NCBI GenBank assembly: GCA_951801825.1
Contig: CATOOF010000001.1
Coordinates: 8,936-72,935 of the forward strand
Reading direction: 5' to 3'
Length of the DNA: 64,000 nucleotides
From: an uncultured Alphaproteobacteria bacterium
GTDB taxonomy: Bacteria > Pseudomonadota > Alphaproteobacteria > Rs-D84
Part shown: positions 14,820-50,481 of the stretch, piece after piece
How positions within the stretch are numbered: position 1 is the stretch's first letter
Layout: the number at the start of each line of letters is the position of its first letter
Position numbers and translations under genes: made by a program
The notes under the pieces: model-generated
The model's database searches: none
Told to the model about the DNA's origin: nothing
Seen by the model: the letters and a program-made list of their open reading frames with translations, nothing else

Positions 14820-15827
14820 TTAATTTCTACTTTTTTTTATCGCGCGCCAGTCGGCATGATGACGCATATGCTGTTCATAAGAATTAGAAAAATGATGCCC
14901 GCCGCGCCCATCTGCGACAAAAAACAGATAATTTGTATCAGCCGGCTTCAACACAGCGCGAATTGCCGCCTGGCCCACATTTGCAATCGGTGCCGGCGGC
15001 AGGCCACGATGCAGATATGTGTTGTACGGACTCTCTATCTTCAAATGTCCGCGCAACAACGGTTCGCCCCGCATATCCCCCACCCCCCCTGTCAAGGCAT
15101 ATACAACGGTCGGATCTGCCTGCAGTCGCATATTTTTATTCAACCGATTGACATAAACACTGGCCACCAGCGGCATTTCTGCCGCACGCGGCGTTTCTTT
15201 TTGTACAATTGATGCCAGCGTAAGAACATCATTCCAGCTGCTGAGCGGCGACGGCGCAATACGCCCCGCCCTGACCCATGCATCATGTATGGCATCCATT
15301 TTCTTGCGCGCCAAATCCAGCACCGCCAGCCGCGCCGTACCGCGTGCAACGCGATACGTGTCGGGAAAAATATCACCATCACGCAGATTGCAAACCGGCA
15401 AATCACTGGGCTTGTCACACTCTACCGCGCCAGACAAACCGCCGGCCTGCAACAGTAATTGCTTTGTCTGAATAATAGTAAGGCCTTCAGGTATTACAAC
15501 CGTGGTCGCCGCAACATCGCCTGTCGCCAACATGCGCGCCACGCGCCATGCGCTAACATGCGGCGGAAATTCATATTCACCGCTCTGCACACGGCCATCC
15601 GCCATGCGCACACACATTTTAAACAACCCAACCGAATCAATAACGCCGGCCGACACCAGCTGACGCGCCACGGCGGCAACACTGGCGCCACGCGGCACAC
15701 TTATTACGACACTTTTACGTAACGGGGAATAAAATCCGACCGTATACACCCCGGCAATCAACGCCGCCAGTAATGCCAGGCCGAAAAAAATCATAAACTT
15801 TTGTTGTTTAAAACTTCTGGGCTTCAT
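14820..15827 (-). CDS. mltG: Endolytic murein transglycosylase MltG (YceG family)
   Basis: N-terminal TM helix followed by a YceG-like domain (…VIPEGLTIIQ…, …YNTYLHRGLPPAPIANVG…). Confidence 0.8.
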   Translation of the reverse strand: MKPRSFKQQKFMIFFGLALLAALIAGVYTVGFYSPLRKSVVISVPRGASVAAVARQLVSAGVIDSVGLFKMCVRMADGRVQSGEYEFPPHVSAWRVARMLATGDVAATTVVIPEGLTIIQTKQLLLQAGGLSGAVECDKPSDLPVCNLRDGDIFPDTYRVARGTARLAVLDLARKKMDAIHDAWVRAGRIAPSPLSSWNDVLTLASIVQKETPRAAEMPLVASVYVNRLNKNMRLQADPTVVYALTGGVGDMRGEPLLRGHLKIESPYNTYLHRGLPPAPIANVGQAAIRAVLKPADTNYLFFVADGRGGHHFSNSYEQHMRHHADWRAIKKSRN

Positions 15828-25577: not shown

Positions 25578-26150
25578 ATGAAACTTGTTGAATCAATTCT
25601 TAAAAAATCTGAACATCCGGCCTATGCATGGATAGTTTTTGTTTTAACAGTATGCGAATCGATATTCCTGTTTGTCCCGCCAGAGGTTTTTATGACCCCG
25701 CCTATTATTGCGAACCGCCGACGTGCGATTCCGATTACGATTGCGGCGGCGGCCGGTTCGCTGGTCGGCGGCGCAATTGCATATTTGATTGGATACTGGC
25801 TGTTTGACTCGGTCGGACTGTGGCTGATACAAAATTTTGCCACGATGGAAAAATTTGAAATGGCCCAGGCGTTATTTATAAAGCATGGTCTGTTTATAAT
25901 TGTCCTGACCGCGTTTACCCCTATTCCGTACAAGCTGATGGCAATATGCGCAGGATTCATGGGATTCCCGGCGGCATTGTTCTTAGGCGTATCGGCGGTA
26001 TTCCGCACGGCGCGTTTTGCCATCGTCGCAGCGTTACTGTGGCGTTTCCAGGAACAGGCAAACACCATCGTAAAAAAATATTTCTGGCCACTTACCATGT
26101 TTGCAATTATTGCGGCAGGACTGGGCATCGGCCTGATGATGCTGTTATAG
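25578..26150 (+). CDS. YqaA/DedA-superfamily (VTT-domain) inner-membrane protein
   Basis: 190 aa with 4-5 TM helices and an …FVPPEVFMTPP… motif. Confidence 0.55.
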   Translation: MKLVESILKKSEHPAYAWIVFVLTVCESIFLFVPPEVFMTPPIIANRRRAIPITIAAAAGSLVGGAIAYLIGYWLFDSVGLWLIQNFATMEKFEMAQALFIKHGLFIIVLTAFTPIPYKLMAICAGFMGFPAALFLGVSAVFRTARFAIVAALLWRFQEQANTIVKKYFWPLTMFAIIAAGLGIGLMMLL

Positions 26151-26171: not shown

Positions 26172-26181
26172 TGGGGGGGGG
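26172..26181. repeat. homopolymeric G10 tract (intergenic, between convergent genes)
   Basis: tgggggggggg read directly; 22 nt after the stop of the 25578-26150 gene. Confidence 0.9.
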
Positions 26182-26321: not shown

Positions 26322-27560
26322 TTATTCAACCCATATGGTCGCGGTTGCAGTACCCGTGGTTCCCACCGGAATAACCCCCAGTTTTGCCACACCAATCGCA
26401 TCACGTGTTGCAGATACACCCGATACATTCACAGATGTACCACTTACCGTGGCCGATACACCATTTGAACCGCTGGCCGTATACGTTGTATTATTATCAG
26501 TTAACTCGATTGTTGCGGCGGTGGCCTGGTTCGCCGTAAAAGTACCCTTAACAGCCCCCCCCTGTTTAATAGTAAGCGTGGCGTTATTTACCGTCGGAAC
26601 ATTTATCGTTCCCTTTGTGACGGAAATTTTACCGTCTGTCTGGCTAACATTCGTAACGACATTACCCGTCGCGCTAGACTCTGCAACATCCAGTGCATTT
26701 ATCGCATTTGTAATATCACCCGGGGTCGCCGCGGTAACACCCTTTGTAACTGTAAGCGCACCGTTATTTGCCGTAATTGCCGAAACAACGTTTCCGGCAC
26801 CGGTTGTTGTCGCCGTTGTAACTGTATTTGTATCTGTTCCAGATACTGTTATAACCCCAGATGCATCCTTGGTCACAGTAACACTGCCGGAACCTTTAAT
26901 ATTACCATTACTGCCCGCGGTCAATGTATCCTGCTTGCCCGTGGCATAATTATTGTATTGGGTTACTTTGTCCGCCGTAATACCGGAATTAAGAGCGGCC
27001 TGCTGAGCAGAACTCATCGTGGTCCATGCACCATTGGGACCACCCATCTGGTAATTTGCAGTGGATTTAACCTGATACACATTCTTGGCGGCCGCAACGG
27101 CGGCATCCCCCATTGCGGCGGCAATTTCCTCTGCCACCTTTACAGAAGGAATACGCGCATCATTGTCTGTATGCAGGGTGTCATATGTATTAATCGTATC
27201 TATGTTAATCTTTGTCGGGGCAATTGCGGCAGATGCAGAAATATCCGCATTTACAATCGTGCCATCTGCTATATCCCCAGATGTCACAGAACTTTTACCC
27301 GCCAATGTACCTAATGCCGGCTTGTTCTTTATCTGTCCCATGCCGGATGTTGCGTTCCAGTCGGGCTGAACCTGTGCCGCTGGAATATCTGGCTTGTTCG
27401 TCAAATCATTATAAGAGCCAGACGTCGCCACCGGTGCCAAGTTACCTTCTGTGCCCAAACGTTTGTTTAACAGCGTGGTTGATACAACCTCTGCACGGGC
27501 CGGTATCACAGACACAATTGCGATAAAAGAAACTGCAAAAATACCAGCTATATTCCTCAT
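26322..27560 (-). CDS. Secreted surface-fibre protein with phage-tail-fibre-type repeats
   Basis: Signal peptide, then …SGSYNDLTNKPDIPAAQVQPDWNATSGMGQIKNKP… Thr/Gly/Ala-rich beta-rich body. Shares the …NDARIPSVKVAEEIA… motif with the neighbouring gene. Confidence 0.55.
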   Translation of the reverse strand: MRNIAGIFAVSFIAIVSVIPARAEVVSTTLLNKRLGTEGNLAPVATSGSYNDLTNKPDIPAAQVQPDWNATSGMGQIKNKPALGTLAGKSSVTSGDIADGTIVNADISASAAIAPTKINIDTINTYDTLHTDNDARIPSVKVAEEIAAAMGDAAVAAAKNVYQVKSTANYQMGGPNGAWTTMSSAQQAALNSGITADKVTQYNNYATGKQDTLTAGSNGNIKGSGSVTVTKDASGVITVSGTDTNTVTTATTTGAGNVVSAITANNGALTVTKGVTAATPGDITNAINALDVAESSATGNVVTNVSQTDGKISVTKGTINVPTVNNATLTIKQGGAVKGTFTANQATAATIELTDNNTTYTASGSNGVSATVSGTSVNVSGVSATRDAIGVAKLGVIPVGTTGTATATIWVE

Positions 27561-27672: not shown

Positions 27673-28914
27673 TTAACGTCCAATCGTTTCCCAAACATAT
27701 GCGCCGTTGCGGAACAATAACGCACAGCCCGCTTCAGAAGTTTCACAATTCGTACCGGGTTTTGGAATTGCATTATTTGCCTTGGCCAGTGCGCTGTCCG
27801 CCGTATCCTGGGCATCTGACGCCGCAGTATTTGCCTGGGTGGCCGCGGCTTGCGCCGTGGTGGCCTTGCCGCCTACTTCCTTTATCGCGGCGACAACGGT
27901 TGTCGCGGTTGTTCCCATATTTGTCGCAGAAACATCTCCAACCTCTGCATCATAGGTTGCGGTTGGTAACTTAGTTCCCAGTCCAGATGTTGTGCTTTCA
28001 ATCGCCGTCTTGTTTGCATTCGCCGTTGCGGCCGCGGCCTGGACCGCCGCATCATTTGATGTTTTATATGTGTCTAAGGCCGCCGCGGCATCGGTTCCCG
28101 CCTTTTTGGCCGTAGCCACCGCCGCATCTGTCTCTGTTTTTGTATATGCGTCACCAATATTATAGCCCGCCAATGTAGTGGCTTTATCCGCCTTGCCTTC
28201 AACCGCGGTGTTTATTGCATCAACCGCAACCTTAATTTTATTATCAACACTGCCATCAACAGTATCTGCCGCATTCAAGGTTGCAATCGCATCGGTGTTT
28301 GTCTTGATTGCATCAATTTTTTCCTTTGTTGCACCAGAGACCATAACCGCACTGTTATTAATGGCAGTAATCGCGGACGTATTTTCTGCAATGTCCGCCT
28401 TTAGTTCTGTATCATCATATGTCGCGGCTGTTTTTGCATCATCAATTAACTCAACAACCGTCTTGTCTGCGGGTACGGTACCGATTGTCTTATTAATTGC
28501 ATTATCTGCCGCGGTACGCGCCGCTATCTCGTCATCAATTCTTGTGCCCAATGCGGTATCCGCAGATGTACGTGCCGCTGATTCTGCATCCATCTCTGCC
28601 TTGGTAAGACCTTTGTTACTGGCCGTCAATGGCGTAACAAAATCTTCCTTTTTTCTTGAATAGATATTTGCAGCCGCCGTTACCGCCGCATCAGCCGATG
28701 CACTGGCAATGTCTTCGGCAACTTTTACTGTTGGAATACGTTCATCATTATCAGCATTGCTGGTATTATAAGAAGACATGTTGTCAATTTTCAACGTATC
28801 CTGTTTTGTTTTGGCAATATCATCAACATACGTTGTTGATGCAATATCCGCACGTGCCGCACCAACCGCCAAAAACGCCGCCAGAGAAGCTACCAAAAAT
28901 CCTGCTCTTTTCAT
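27673..28914 (-). CDS. Secreted Ala/Thr-rich coiled-coil surface protein (paralog)
   Basis: Signal peptide MKRAGFLVASLAAFLAVGAARA, then DIASTTYVDDIA…, then …NDERIPTVKVAEDIA…; a long coiled-coil; C-terminal IPKPGTNCETSEAGCALLFRNGAYVWETIGR. Confidence 0.55.
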   Translation of the reverse strand: MKRAGFLVASLAAFLAVGAARADIASTTYVDDIAKTKQDTLKIDNMSSYNTSNADNDERIPTVKVAEDIASASADAAVTAAANIYSRKKEDFVTPLTASNKGLTKAEMDAESAARTSADTALGTRIDDEIAARTAADNAINKTIGTVPADKTVVELIDDAKTAATYDDTELKADIAENTSAITAINNSAVMVSGATKEKIDAIKTNTDAIATLNAADTVDGSVDNKIKVAVDAINTAVEGKADKATTLAGYNIGDAYTKTETDAAVATAKKAGTDAAAALDTYKTSNDAAVQAAAATANANKTAIESTTSGLGTKLPTATYDAEVGDVSATNMGTTATTVVAAIKEVGGKATTAQAAATQANTAASDAQDTADSALAKANNAIPKPGTNCETSEAGCALLFRNGAYVWETIGR

Positions 28915-30741: not shown

Positions 30742-32592
30742 TTACTCTGTAACCACTTCAAACCAGCCCTTTTGACCATTGCTAATCGCCAGTACGAAAT
30801 CACCTTCTTCTGGTGCGCCTTCGACAGTAACCGCCTGGTCCGCCTTTGTCAGCGATGCCTGAACATCCGCCGCCAATTTCGTTTTTGCAATTGCCGCATC
30901 ATCTGCAACATCTGCATTTGTAATTGTGTCTTTTGCCGCCAATGTGCCCAAATCTTCTGTTTTGGCATATCCGCTTAAGTCTATATTGCCGGCCTCTACA
31001 ACCGCATCCTCAAGCGCTTTTTTAGTTGCAAACTTTTCATCAGCCGCTGATTTCGTATAAACATTTTCCGCATCAGCCTTTAACGCCAGCGACGTTGTTG
31101 CCGCATCAGCCGCCGTCTTGGCCGCATCGGCCTTATCGGATGCCGTTCCTGCCGCCGTCAATGCGGACGCCGCCACACCAGATGCCGCATCGGCCGCTGT
31201 TTTTGCGGCCCCGGCTGTTGATACCGCCAACGCCGCATCGGCAACCGCGCCGCTAACATCGACCGCCATTTCATCAACATCAGTCGCCAGTGTATTTACA
31301 CGCCCCTCCAGAGCGGTTACCGTTGCGCCTTTTGCATAATCGGCCAAATCGGTAACATTTGCCTTTTTCTCAAGCGCAGTGTTAACATCAGCCGTTTTGG
31401 CATATTCGGATAAAGCCGCACTCATGTCGCCTGCAACAATATCGGCAACTTTCTCGTCAACCTGGGTCTTTGTGTAAACATCTGCAGATTTTGCATAATC
31501 AGCCAGAGATTGGTGCTCTGTCAGATACTTTGCATCTGACTGGCCCTTTGTGTAAACATCCGAAACATTCGCCTTGTCCGCCAGCGCCGTATTAACCCAT
31601 GCCTTAGGTGCAAGATCCGCAGTTGCGTTTGTAATGCTTTCTTCTACCGCCGTTTTCGTGGCATACGCCGCCAGCTGTGTCTTGTCCGCCTTGTCAGACA
31701 ATGCATTGGCCATTTCGGTCGATGTAACATGCCCCGCATCCGCAATTGCTGTTTTAATCGCCTGATTCATTTGCTCTGTTGTGGAATACTTAGCGGAATC
31801 AAGGCCCTCGCCCGGGTCACCCTTGTCACCCTTTTCACCTTTCTCGCCCGCCGGGCCCTGGGGACCGGTTAAGCCTTGGGGCCCCTGGGGGCCGACCAGC
31901 TCACTAATTGCAATCAAATCCTGCCACTGGGTATCGCCGACATAGCGCCACTGAATATGGGTTGCATTCTTAGAAATCTCAACCTCGCGGCCATTTGCAC
32001 CAACAATGGTTTCCAGCCCGTCTTTCAGCGCATCTATATTCAGGAAAATTTCATCATCTTCTATTTCAATATAGCCATCGCCCGTCAACACATTTTGCTT
32101 GTCTGCAAAAAAACCGTCTATTTCATCATTTGTGTACAAAGCACCAACCTGGGATTCAAGTTCGCCAACACGGTCTGTCAATGCGCCGGCAATTCCTGGA
32201 TCCATGGAACCACCGCCACTGTTGCTAACGCCGCTGCCCGGTTTTTGATTTTTGATAGAACTGCCCCCACTGACAGATGTGCCGCCACCCAAATATTTGC
32301 CAATAGACAAACGTGGCGCGGTTGCAACACGGCCCGTCGTTGCCGTACCGCGATTTGAAGACCCAGACGCAGACGCCCCGCCAGCCGACGGCGCCACGCG
32401 CATTGATCCCGCGCGCACTGCGTTTATGGCCCCACTGGGGGCGCCGCCACCCGCGGCCGCAGATGATGCACTGGAATACGTTCCTGCCCCCCCTAACGAC
32501 CGCACCGACGCGGCCCCAAAAGCGCCCGATATCGCCGATGTGCACAAAACACAAACAACTGCCAATCGTGATATTTGAACTCTGTTTTTCAT
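30742..32592 (-). CDS. Secreted collagen-like-repeat surface-fibre protein (start at MKNRVQ; ORF extends to 32631)
   Basis: Signal peptide; Gly/Ser-rich linker; …IQWRYVGDTQWQDLIAISELVGPQGPQGLTGPQGPAGEKGEKGDKGDPGEG (10 GXY triplets); then about 300 aa of KADKTQL/DVYTK-type repeats. Confidence 0.6.
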   Translation of the reverse strand: MKNRVQISRLAVVCVLCTSAISGAFGAASVRSLGGAGTYSSASSAAAGGGAPSGAINAVRAGSMRVAPSAGGASASGSSNRGTATTGRVATAPRLSIGKYLGGGTSVSGGSSIKNQKPGSGVSNSGGGSMDPGIAGALTDRVGELESQVGALYTNDEIDGFFADKQNVLTGDGYIEIEDDEIFLNIDALKDGLETIVGANGREVEISKNATHIQWRYVGDTQWQDLIAISELVGPQGPQGLTGPQGPAGEKGEKGDKGDPGEGLDSAKYSTTEQMNQAIKTAIADAGHVTSTEMANALSDKADKTQLAAYATKTAVEESITNATADLAPKAWVNTALADKANVSDVYTKGQSDAKYLTEHQSLADYAKSADVYTKTQVDEKVADIVAGDMSAALSEYAKTADVNTALEKKANVTDLADYAKGATVTALEGRVNTLATDVDEMAVDVSGAVADAALAVSTAGAAKTAADAASGVAASALTAAGTASDKADAAKTAADAATTSLALKADAENVYTKSAADEKFATKKALEDAVVEAGNIDLSGYAKTEDLGTLAAKDTITNADVADDAAIAKTKLAADVQASLTKADQAVTVEGAPEEGDFVLAISNGQKGWFEVVTE

Positions 32593-45327: not shown

Positions 45328-46295
45328 TTATTGCCCGCCGTCATTCTCTTTTTTCAAAAGCCTTGCATATTTATCCATTGAATTGTCGTATACGTCGTTA
45401 GTATCAAACTTATCAAAATCGGCGCGCGTGTATCGAACATAGCCACTCCCCCAGAATGCATCGCCCTTTGTATGTTTTTCCTGGGAATCCTGCCATGACT
45501 TGCATCGATAGTGATTTATACGGATTATATCCTGCGACAGGCCGGGGATAACATTGCTGGGGGTGACGGCGTGGCCGCGCTCGTCAACACTGCGCCAGAT
45601 TACGTCGAAAACGTGTGGCGACCGACACCCAACGACCATGCGCGGATTTACGATTATTTTGTTTGCCTCACCCGAATTATCCCGTTGACGATACTTATAG
45701 TTTTCAATAACCAACCCTGCGGGCCGCGTCACATGCCCCGCCGACCCATACAGGCACCACCTAATAAAAATCTGGGCCGTACGCTGTGGAATACGGCGCA
45801 GAAAATCTGGAATCGTACAATCTTTCACCGGCATTATAAACTCGTCCAAATCAATGACCGCCAGCCAACGCGCCTCGGCCGCGGCGCGACGAACAGCGGC
45901 ATAGTTTACCCGGTTTTGAACCCCCTCACCCCGGACATAATGATACTCGACCACCCCGGCGTCGATATAAGGTTTTAAAATCTCAAAGGTGTTGTCGGTT
46001 GACTCGTTGTCAAATATATAAAATTTTTCAACCCCGACCAGTCGATGATAATCTATCCATTCTTTAAAATAACGACCTTCGTTTCGCGCTACCGCGCTAA
46101 CTGTCAGAAAATACTTATTTTTACCCCCCCCCCCGCAACTATTGTCCGAGCGGCGGAAAATATGCCGAATTTTATTATATTGCGCACACGATTACGGATC
46201 ATGCGACATGGCACAATACCAGATACCATACCGGCGACAAATTTACGTCCCTTGGATATCTTTTTCTCGTTATGTGTTATGTCAATTTTAATCAT
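45328..46295 (-). CDS. Glycosyltransferase (GT2/GT92-like), split over two frames at a poly-G tract
   Basis: Frame A (GTG at 45954 and open upstream to 46191) encodes …KNKYFLTVSAVARNEGRYFKEWIDYHRLVGVEKFYIFDNESTDNTFEILKPYIDAG…IDLDEF… (GT-A fold, DxD). The only ATG-initiated N-terminus (46295) is in frame +1 and terminates 18 nt after the G11 tract. Confidence 0.65.
46124..46134 (-). repeat. homopolymeric G11 (C11 on + strand) tract in the 5' end of the glycosyltransferase gene
   Basis: ttacccccccccccgcaa read directly. Confidence 0.9.
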
Positions 46296-46356
46296 ATCAT
46301 ATATCCATATTAAAAAAATGCATCCCGCACATGGCGGGATTTTTTTCGCAACACTT

Positions 46357-48387: not shown

Positions 48388-50481
48388 TTAGTTATCTATT
48401 ATGGTTTCAATTAAATCACCGATTGGCGCCCCCATCCATTCCGGATCGTCGCGCATATCGGGCGCACCACGGCTAAGCGCTGTTTTACACGGCTGGTCGT
48501 CCGCCAGCCAGTTTTCCAACAAATCGCCCGCCAACAGCCCCAGCCCGGCACCGGCCGCCAAACTGATACCACCCGTAAACGGCGCCAGCAGTAATCCAAT
48601 ACCGGTTGCCGATGCAACCTTGCCCGCAACCGCCGCGCCACTTATTCTTATATCAGGTTCTGCCAAATTGCCAGAAATTTCTACGGAATTCATAACATTT
48701 CCCGTCAGCGACAGTTTTAATCCGCGAACCGGCACCGTCGTCAGCGCCAGACGCATGCTTTCTTCTCCTAAATCCAGACTGCCCGCCAGACGCAGATTTA
48801 TAGCGTTCGTTTCAACCGCAACACCATTTTCAGTCTCTATTCGCCCATTTCGAATCTTGGCCGAAATGGCGGCACATGAAATCTTTATCTGGTTATGCTT
48901 TTTCTCGGACCGGAACAAATCCTGGATGCCGTGACGCAGGCTGGTCAGGAAATCCGTGCCATAAATATTTGCAACCAATGCCGAATGCGCATACCCCGAG
49001 CCATTCGAATAAATCTGAACAGGACCGGTCGCCGTCTGCATTAATTCCGATAAATCGGCCCCGCGCCCACGTAAATAAAACCGCAGTCCCACCGGCAGAT
49101 TAGATATCAAATCAGGGGCACGCACCTGGTCGAGTATCTTTCCAACCTGAATGTTTTCGCCCATACCCGCCGCAATGATATCCAATGTTCCGTCAGGCTC
49201 TATCACAACATCTGCCGCGGCCTCTGTGGTGCCCCCCCCAATTCCGGCATGCAGATCAATGCGTCCCTGGCCGCTGTTTATGCGCATGCTCAAATCAATA
49301 TCAGCCAGGGTCAAATCCCGATAAACAATCATCTTGTCAATCTCGGCACGCAGATTCATGTCAAATTTCAAAAATTCCTTGCCATACAGTGGAATGTCTT
49401 TGAACACGTTCAGTTCCCTGTCGGGACGACCGCGGCGCTTAGACGCATACAGTTCCGGGAACAGTTCCATCAAATTTATCCGACGCGATTCCAGATTAAG
49501 CGTAAACGTGGGCTTTTTCCGTGTCCAATTATAATCCCCGGAAAATGTTATCTCGTTCCCGCGTACCAATGCGGTTGATTTGCGAAATGTTATCTTGCGC
49601 CCATCAAATCCGCCGGCCACATTCACACTCATTGTCGGCATATATGCCAATTCCAGGTTCAGCATCGCCCCCAGTGCGGCAACATCTGGGATATCGCCGC
49701 TTAGCACGAAATCAATCGGCAAGCGGCTGGTGCCTTCCAGTGCGACATTCGCAATCAGCGCATTGCCGCCCGTAGATATTGCAACCCGCACGGGATAAAC
49801 TTTCCGCTCGGGGTTATATTCGGAATAAGAAACAATAAACGGATAAACTTTTTCAGTCGGCTTTATCCATCCGGCATATTCGCGGGCATCATCTTTTGGG
49901 ATGTATTTAATTTCAAACCCGGCCAGAGAATACGTTCCATCCAGCAAATGCAGTGTCAGATTTTTTACCTCAACCCCGCCCAGGCCCGGATCTGCAAATG
50001 GATATTTCGGCTGAACCGCCGCCACATCCGGGGCATCATCGGCATTAGCGGCCGTGTCTTTATCAGTTTCGTCGGCATGCGGCGATATGGAGTATTCACC
50101 CTTTTCGTTTCGCTCTATACAGACCGATGCGTCATTAATTTTTACGTTCTTTATCGTCGGCCGGTCACGCAACAGCGACACCAAATCCAGCGTAACATCG
50201 ATTGATTCTGCACTGAATGCGTATTCATGGCGCGCCCACTGCGCATTTCGAACGCGCACCTGGTGCAACTCTATGCGCGGACGCAATGAAAATTTCCACG
50301 ATACCGCGCCGTCAATTTCTATATCCACCCCTGTCGCACCGCGCAAAATACCCAATATATCGCCACGCAGTGTTTCAAGGTTAACCTGGCTTAGCGCGAT
50401 AACAACGGCCACCACCAGCCCCATAAAAAATATCGAGACTATGCGCGCAATTGTAAAAAACAAATTTTTTCGAAACAGCAT
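48388..50481 (-). CDS. AsmA-family outer-membrane assembly protein
   Basis: 697 aa; N-terminal TM anchor; long beta-rich AsmA-like body. Confidence 0.65.
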   Translation of the reverse strand: MLFRKNLFFTIARIVSIFFMGLVVAVVIALSQVNLETLRGDILGILRGATGVDIEIDGAVSWKFSLRPRIELHQVRVRNAQWARHEYAFSAESIDVTLDLVSLLRDRPTIKNVKINDASVCIERNEKGEYSISPHADETDKDTAANADDAPDVAAVQPKYPFADPGLGGVEVKNLTLHLLDGTYSLAGFEIKYIPKDDAREYAGWIKPTEKVYPFIVSYSEYNPERKVYPVRVAISTGGNALIANVALEGTSRLPIDFVLSGDIPDVAALGAMLNLELAYMPTMSVNVAGGFDGRKITFRKSTALVRGNEITFSGDYNWTRKKPTFTLNLESRRINLMELFPELYASKRRGRPDRELNVFKDIPLYGKEFLKFDMNLRAEIDKMIVYRDLTLADIDLSMRINSGQGRIDLHAGIGGGTTEAAADVVIEPDGTLDIIAAGMGENIQVGKILDQVRAPDLISNLPVGLRFYLRGRGADLSELMQTATGPVQIYSNGSGYAHSALVANIYGTDFLTSLRHGIQDLFRSEKKHNQIKISCAAISAKIRNGRIETENGVAVETNAINLRLAGSLDLGEESMRLALTTVPVRGLKLSLTGNVMNSVEISGNLAEPDIRISGAAVAGKVASATGIGLLLAPFTGGISLAAGAGLGLLAGDLLENWLADDQPCKTALSRGAPDMRDDPEWMGAPIGDLIETIIDN

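Follow-up and report, generated by a model that had tools for sequence, protein, structure and literature searches.

The window, i.e. the whole 64-kb stretch of DNA that was analysed, carries on its minus strand a glycosyltransferase gene of family GT92 in the gene order asmA-cdaA-dnaN-GT92-ppa-efp-HTH-fba; the context is one of housekeeping genes, as an earlier note on this DNA had remarked. The features of the locus are collected in Table 1. The reading frame of the gene is interrupted at a homopolymer, and on the minus strand the site reads ATAGTTGC-G11-T-A5-TAAGTATTTTC, with GTTGC-G11-T-A5-TAAG as the local context (C11 on the plus strand). The tract lies 162 nt into the GT92 ORF, within the coding region. 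The earlier note had stated that two frames meet at this 11-nt poly-G, that the ATG-initiated frame enters the tract and stops 18 nt later, and that the other frame is open without any start codon 5′ of the tract. The coordinates and both frames were reproduced. The ATG-initiated frame yields a 63-aa ORF, a conserved N-terminal segment followed by six out-of-frame residues, and the first ATG, GTG or TTG codon of the downstream frame is GTG at 45954 (208 aa). Therefore, the frame of the glycosyltransferase domain has no initiation codon of its own at its N-terminus. The two frames share only 18 nt 3′ of the tract.

Table 1. Coordinates of the features at the GT92 locus and of poly-C tracts in related genes.
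Feature	Position	Strand	Remarks
Whole GT92 gene, candidate phase-variable gene	45328..46295	-	OFF here (G11+A5); from frames, Pfam match and tract comparison
Upstream ORF, current OFF state, 63 aa	46104..46295	-	ATG at 46295, MIKID...TIVAGGGVKISIF
Downstream open frame, GT92 / GT-A catalytic domain	45328..46191	-	open from stop to stop
G11 homopolymer, presumed hypermutable tract	46124..46134	-	codes for Gly run at about residues 55-58
A5 run 3′ of G11-T	46118..46122	-	A6 in most of the species; sets the in-frame G lengths
DxD motif, D149-L-D151 of IDLDEF (fused protein)	45844..45852	-	gat ttg gac; invariant in 22 homologues
dnaN terminator-like hairpin, 7-bp stem and T7 tail	46312..46340	-	about 17 nt 5′ of the GT92 ATG
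Poly-C tract in GT92 homologue, gut Alphaproteobacteria MAG	L037:4715-4723
Poly-C tract in GT92 homologue, gut Alphaproteobacteria MAG	L051:4713-4722
Poly-C tract in GT92 homologue, gut Alphaproteobacteria MAG	L069:4721-4732

Editing of the tract in silico bore out the proposal that 12 or 9 G would fuse the frames into a protein of about 322 aa. In the A5 background, G9 gives a 321-aa and G12 a 322-aa protein, and G7, G8, G10, G11, G13 and G14 all end early, at 56–64 aa. In the A6 background the register is shifted, with G8, G11 and G14 in frame (ON) and G9, G10 and G12 OFF. Evidently, the G11 of the window is an OFF length since the window lineage has A5 and not A6. The earlier assignment of G11 as an OFF length thus holds for the window lineage but not for most of the species, where G11 with A6 is ON. 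The window has one G/C run of at least 11 nt, where a first-order Markov model of its sequence expects 0.02 in 64 kb; for runs of at least 8 nt the same model expects 1.5, and four were observed.

Between the dnaN terminator and the GT92 ATG, neither a convincing sigma-70 promoter nor a strong Shine-Dalgarno sequence was found. The T7 tail of the terminator (46312-46318; A7 on the plus strand) is T6 in other haplotypes, and with T6 the gene callers start the GT92 ORF 12 codons earlier, at an ATG in the loop of the terminator; the resulting ORF calls of 333/334 aa are probably an annotation artefact. Other ORF calls at the locus are one of 293 aa, which starts at an alternative ATG, and those of 269/270 aa, which start at a TTG just 5′ of the tract. 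The possibility that the OFF lengths are designed to give N-terminal isoforms was dismissed, as the 293-aa frame is open in one haplotype only (the window has ATG TCG CAT GAT CCG TAA) and the TTG just before the tract has no ribosome-binding site.

The best protein match among the scanned GTDB species-representative genomes is “MAG: Alphaproteobacteria bacterium RACS_032” with 97% amino acid identity, a MAG name of which no mention was found in the literature. The relatives are uncultured Alphaproteobacteria, one MAG name (single-wildmice) indicates mouse gut, and remoter homologues are found in Candidatus Enterousia and livestock-gut MAGs. The names of contigs and MAGs suggest rodent gut as the habitat. 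The species occurs widely in gut metagenomes, with its ppa protein indexed in 719 blocks of the collection.

The interval between dnaN and ppa differs among close relatives. The housekeeping flanks of this gap are 96.5–99% identical at the protein level in sister species (dnaN 96.5–98.9%) whereas GT92 is only 64–73% identical to that of the window species. Six sister contigs (L025, L026, L027, L028, L029 and L104) hold a two-gene GT2+GT92 cassette in the gap, GT2 first, to which L026 adds a downstream 215-aa Cys-rich ORF; the window species has GT92 only. From the conserved flanks, the divergent GT92 and the differing gene content, we regard the gap as a small, fast-evolving, variable glycosyltransferase island. 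The GT92 pathway could be incomplete in the window species since the GT2 partner of the sister species is absent. In L029, the G8 and C11 runs that precede the cassette were considered as a promoter tract and rejected; they are the arms of a long G:C hairpin (L029:2858-2889, G8-ACGGTGAACCGT-C11) followed by AATTTTT, i.e. a terminator-like structure.

Family and predicted fold of the enzyme

The fused translation, which the earlier note had taken for a glycosyltransferase, matches Pfam Glyco_transf_92 (PF01697) with E = 1.5e-19 and a score of 71 bits, the cut-off being 23, and it also matches Glyco_tranf_2_4. PF01697 was found in 120 out of 120 homologues among the matches listed. A scan of the fused protein against NCBIfam matched no family and no equivalog. 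Alignment of the 22 homologues revealed about 50 further invariant columns besides the DxD motif, and the N-terminal 55 residues are conserved in the orthologues (RKF..S..P.R..RNRVRNII.FG).

The AlphaFold2 model of the fused protein (pLDDT 87.8, pTM 0.88) has three N-terminal helices (15-53), a loop (54-60) that contains the glycines coded by the tract, and a Rossmann-like GT-A domain. The best PDB matches obtained with Foldseek are GT-A enzymes, namely SunS (E = 1.8e-8), SpsA, and heparosan and chondroitin synthases. As the glycines fall in the loop between the helices and the GT-A domain, the model suggests that the tract codes for part of a linker that tolerates changes of length, close to the 5′ end of the gene. 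Tracts for translational phase variation are usually found in this part of a gene.

No characterised bacterial GT92 enzyme was found in the literature. In CAZy, GT92 (PF01697) includes eukaryotic β-1,4-galactosyltransferases, such as the plant galactan synthase GALS1 and GALT-1 of C. elegans (PMC6646851). The present protein shares with them a Pfam match above the gathering score, the GT-A fold and the invariant DxD. In contrast to the eukaryotic enzymes, it is bacterial, about 320 aa long and predicted to be soluble or peripherally associated, and a short, basic helical segment at its N-terminus takes the place of their type-II membrane anchor. Since the characterised GT92 enzymes are β-1,4-galactosyltransferases, decoration of a surface glycan would be the role suggested by analogy. 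The neighbourhood of the gene holds no LPS, capsule or other glycan genes that would identify the acceptor.

Tract length in the window lineage and in the rest of the species

According to the earlier note, a tract of invariant length, together with a fused translation that hits no glycosyltransferase family, would argue for a pseudogene or an assembly error. In public assemblies, as distinct from raw reads, the length was found to vary from G8 through G9 and G10 to G11 on flanks without a single mismatch. Contigs with 0 mismatches to the window over 1.3–4.3 kb, in which the tract is the only gap, carry G11 (L011), G10 (L013, L015, L016 and L018), G9 (L019-21) and G8 (L022-23). These contigs come from independent samples, and the encoded protein is identical apart from the tract. 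By run, the 0-mismatch lineage is represented by SRR25844972 for G11, by SRR31373268, SRR22526856/874 and SRR29855667/683 for G10, by SRR24150594/596 and SRR32520754 for G9, and by SRR29855662/692 for G8. A5 is common to all of them regardless of the G length. Two further contigs of the window lineage, L012 (G11, 12 mismatches) and L017 (G10, 2 mismatches), also have A5, and a near-relative with 7 mismatches, L014, has G10+A6. Differing lengths were obtained even from adjacent run accessions, with G8 in SRR29855662/692 and G10 in SRR29855667/683. In the A5 lineage the products of G8, G10 and G11 stop after 57–63 aa. The G9 allele encodes an intact 321-aa protein (P0135) and is present in three contigs, so one of the two ON forms predicted earlier exists in nature; the other, G12+A5, was not found in the collection by exact look-up. 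The allele of the window itself, G11+A5 with its 63-aa and 208-aa products, recurs in nine contigs of other samples or sources, including a 591-kb NCBI contig.

For the rest of the species, the closest full-length protein is P0001 (322 aa, 98% identical), and its exact look-up gave ten contigs, all of them G11+A6, a biased result as such a search retrieves one exact protein only. It could be read as a deletion from A6 to A5 with an otherwise invariant G tract. This reading was ruled out by wider look-ups, which show the tract varying in every lineage. For these, the products expected at other tract lengths were looked up exactly, and the 90% cluster of P0001 with its 130 members was used. The ON products are the 322/334-aa protein with “...AGGGVKNK” (G11+A6; 24, 34 and 26 contigs) and the 333-aa protein with “...AGGVKNK” (G8+A6; 6 contigs). 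The OFF products are the 59-aa “...AGGGKK” (G9+A6; 41 and 6 contigs), the 57/69-aa “...AGGG” (G10; 15, 5 and 2 contigs) and the 60-aa “...AGGGGKK” (G12+A6; 12 contigs). The natural products thus agree with the ON/OFF predictions from the in silico edits.

The variation is again seen within haplotypes. Nine of the ten G12 contigs L115-L124 belong to the P0001 haplotype and share their ENA analysis series with the G11 contigs, and seven of the nine differ from the G11 contigs L001/L002 by one gap and 0 mismatches. The tenth, L119 (ERZ28436798 NODE_1751, 16.6 kb), ends at the G tract, and the rest of it shares only 83% identity with L001; here the homopolymer may mark a break in the assembly or a chimeric join. 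Outside the window lineage, two haplotypes of the species show G8 to G12, and G8, G10 and G11 were found in one gene haplotype with fewer than 8 coding differences (L105, L106, L107 and L109). When contigs were sampled through ppa, the 24 longest comprised 13 with G10 (OFF), 9 with G11 (ON) and 2 with G8 (ON), so that about half are ON; for 5 of these contigs the allele was read from the DNA, and the other 19 were assigned by the same neighbouring proteins. A scan of JGI metagenomes with a gapped pattern spanning the tract returned one contig only (G10+A6), too few for allele frequencies.

Some of the tract calls come from low-coverage metagenome contigs (2-6x in their names), in which homopolymer length is error-prone, and this raises the question of a sequencing or assembly artefact, i.e. 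that the true tract is in frame and the break is a miscall in the G11 or the A5/A6 run. Long G runs are error-prone in general, and many of the related contigs have 2-6x coverage. Control tracts were available in four sequences only and form a weak control: the G9 run at 26173 was read as G9 three times and once as G8, in a contig of 3x coverage, and the C8 at 26555 as C8 in 4/4. A miscall is, nevertheless, very improbable. The same G11+A5 allele would have to arise by error in nine contigs of other samples, the 591-kb one among them, and A5 is found in all 0-mismatch relatives at every G length. Lengths from G8 to G12 each recur in several samples, for which random errors of plus or minus one are insufficient. 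Moreover, in a 7-kb alignment with L001, which represents a strain of 94% identity, the tract site is the sole frame-breaking in-gene indel, from which we conclude that the assembly of the window is not indel-ridden. The other in-gene indel in that alignment is of 4 nt and lies at the asmA stop codon.

Maintenance of the gene and the putative switch

When the tract is normalised, 11 of the 11 alleles tested, five of them OFF, give an intact 969-nt ORF. Pairwise dN/dS between haplotypes, OFF alleles included, is about 0.03–0.18. The integrity of the OFF alleles together with these ratios argues against pseudogene decay. A sister species (GCA_011262095; dnaN 97% and GT92 73% identical to the window species) carries G9, in frame, at the corresponding codons (ATG GGG GGG GGC AAA AAA), and remoter orthologues have RARRER at the tract site with no repeat.

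A gene that is dead in the window lineage, with neutral drift of the tract, would be in keeping with three of the four lengths seen in that lineage being OFF, with the ON length (G9) in three contigs only, with the missing GT2 partner and with the want of an obvious promoter. Such decay is, however, improbable, if slightly less so than a miscall, because no OFF allele bears any lesion other than the tract at a dN/dS of 0.03–0.18, ON alleles stand on the same 0-mismatch background, about half of the contigs sampled species-wide are ON, and the tract is kept, in frame, in the sister species.

Taken together, the locus shows a slippable tract, a frame that depends on its length, length polymorphism on an identical background and a gene that is otherwise kept functional. 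As the tract changes with constant flanks, the ORF is clean and ON and OFF alleles share one background, these results speak against an error or a pseudogene and for an ON/OFF switch that is reversible and maintained. We consider it likely that the GT92 gene is a contingency locus, the expression of which is toggled by slipped-strand mispairing in the coding poly-G tract. The phase-variable glycosyltransferase architecture put forward in the earlier note finds strong support in the length polymorphism on identical flanks, the intact OFF alleles and the GT92 match.

In the proposed mechanism, replication slippage would add or remove single G residues in the tract. In the window lineage (A5), G9 or G12 would permit read-through to the 321/322-aa enzyme and the G11 of the window would leave the gene OFF; with A6, as elsewhere in the species, G8 and G11 would be ON and G9, G10 and G12 OFF. 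We infer that the length changes are frequent and reversible within a clone, the variation observed being between samples. Host immunity or phage in the gut would select for such ON/OFF heterogeneity.

Long homopolymers can also promote slippage of RNA polymerase. Transcriptional slippage on the G11/A5 site, or a programmed frameshift, would yield full-length enzyme from the OFF allele and make the OFF state leaky or constitutive. The shortness of the overlap between the frames, 18 nt beyond the tract, would be in keeping with it. Such recoding appears very unlikely, since neither a stimulatory structure nor a slippery heptamer was identified at the site, most of the species has in-frame DNA alleles, and length variation at the level of DNA already accounts for the data.

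For a switch at the level of DNA there are known counterparts. Glycosyltransferases for LOS, capsule and protein glycosylation are phase-variable through poly-G/C tracts in Campylobacter jejuni (wlaN, cgtA), Neisseria (lgtA, lgtC, lgtD, lgtG, pglA) and Helicobacter pylori (futA/B). Slipped-strand phase variation of such enzymes is characteristic of pathogens that are adapted to the mucosa of their hosts. The GT92 gene resembles those genes in its tract, a homopolymeric G/C run of 8-12 nt inside the 5′ part of a glycosyltransferase gene, in the toggling of the frame by plus or minus one nucleotide, in the differing lengths on otherwise identical sequence and in an ORF under purifying selection. 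It differs from them in several respects. The host is an uncultured rodent-gut commensal Alphaproteobacterium and not an epsilon-, beta- or gammaproteobacterial pathogen; the family is GT92 and not GT2, GT8, GT10, GT25 or GT42; the gene stands alone between dnaN and ppa and not within an LOS or capsule cluster; and here a second-site indel, A5/A6, moves the ON register between lineages. Phase-variable systems are covered in reviews (PMC5953494, PMC539331), and no report that combines GT92 with phase variation was found in the literature. The mechanism is textbook, and the host lineage and the GT92 family are new for such a switch, as no earlier report was found.

A closer parallel in lifestyle is provided by the sortase-dependent pili of Bifidobacterium breve, in which a G-tract ON/OFF switch by replication slippage was experimentally shown by deep sequencing (PMC9187656). 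Both are intragenic poly-G slippage switches in gut commensals that act on a surface structure, a putative one in the present case. The B. breve switch, however, acts on a pilus gene of an actinobacterium, while the one proposed here from sequence comparison would act on a glycosyltransferase.

If the switch is real, bet-hedging on surface glycans would extend to poorly known members of the gut microbiota as well, and bacterial GT92 would gain a natural ON/OFF experiment for its function. MAG annotations of a “frameshifted pseudogene” at this locus would then denote switch states and not gene loss. Public metagenome assemblies, through identical flanks and a variable tract, could by themselves be enough to validate a contingency locus.

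Further homopolymers in GT92 homologues and in the window

GT92 paralogues in Enterousia-like MAGs contain in-frame C9, C10 and C12 runs that encode PPP/PPPP (Table 1), and these fall at the conserved “IDQTNNPP” (“NPP”) site of the catalytic domain. Of two other GT92 genes (L052:3975-3983 and L048:1024-1031), one has G9 just 5′ of the start and one an in-frame G8. Each of these runs could be a contingency tract of its own within the GT92 family. The wider proposition that homopolymer contingency tracts are recurrent and independently evolved in GT92 genes of uncultured, reduced-genome gut Alphaproteobacteria is put forward tentatively, and we would sooner expect it to fail than to hold. If true, the lineage would make general use of stochastic glycan switching in its lifestyle, and the A5/A6 second-site indel would be a heritable “register shift” that alters the ON lengths.

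The second-longest G/C run of the window, G9 at 26173-26181, is intergenic and lies between the convergent genes 25578-26150 (+) and 26322-27560 (-). The latter and its neighbour 27673-28914 (-) are adjacent genes of 412 and 413 aa, apparent paralogues that share the motif DNDxRIPxVKVAExIA. Both have signal-peptide-like N-termini, are rich in Thr, Ala, Gly and Asn and have no Pfam hit on record; judging from these features, they may be surface proteins. The gene at 26322-27560 holds a G8 run (C8 at 26555-26562), which is invariant in four contigs. Another G8 (C8 at 49232-49239) lies in asmA on the minus strand and is also G8 in L001, and C7 runs are found at 15083-15089 and 32487-32493. These last three runs are situated in coding genes and encode GG or GGG.
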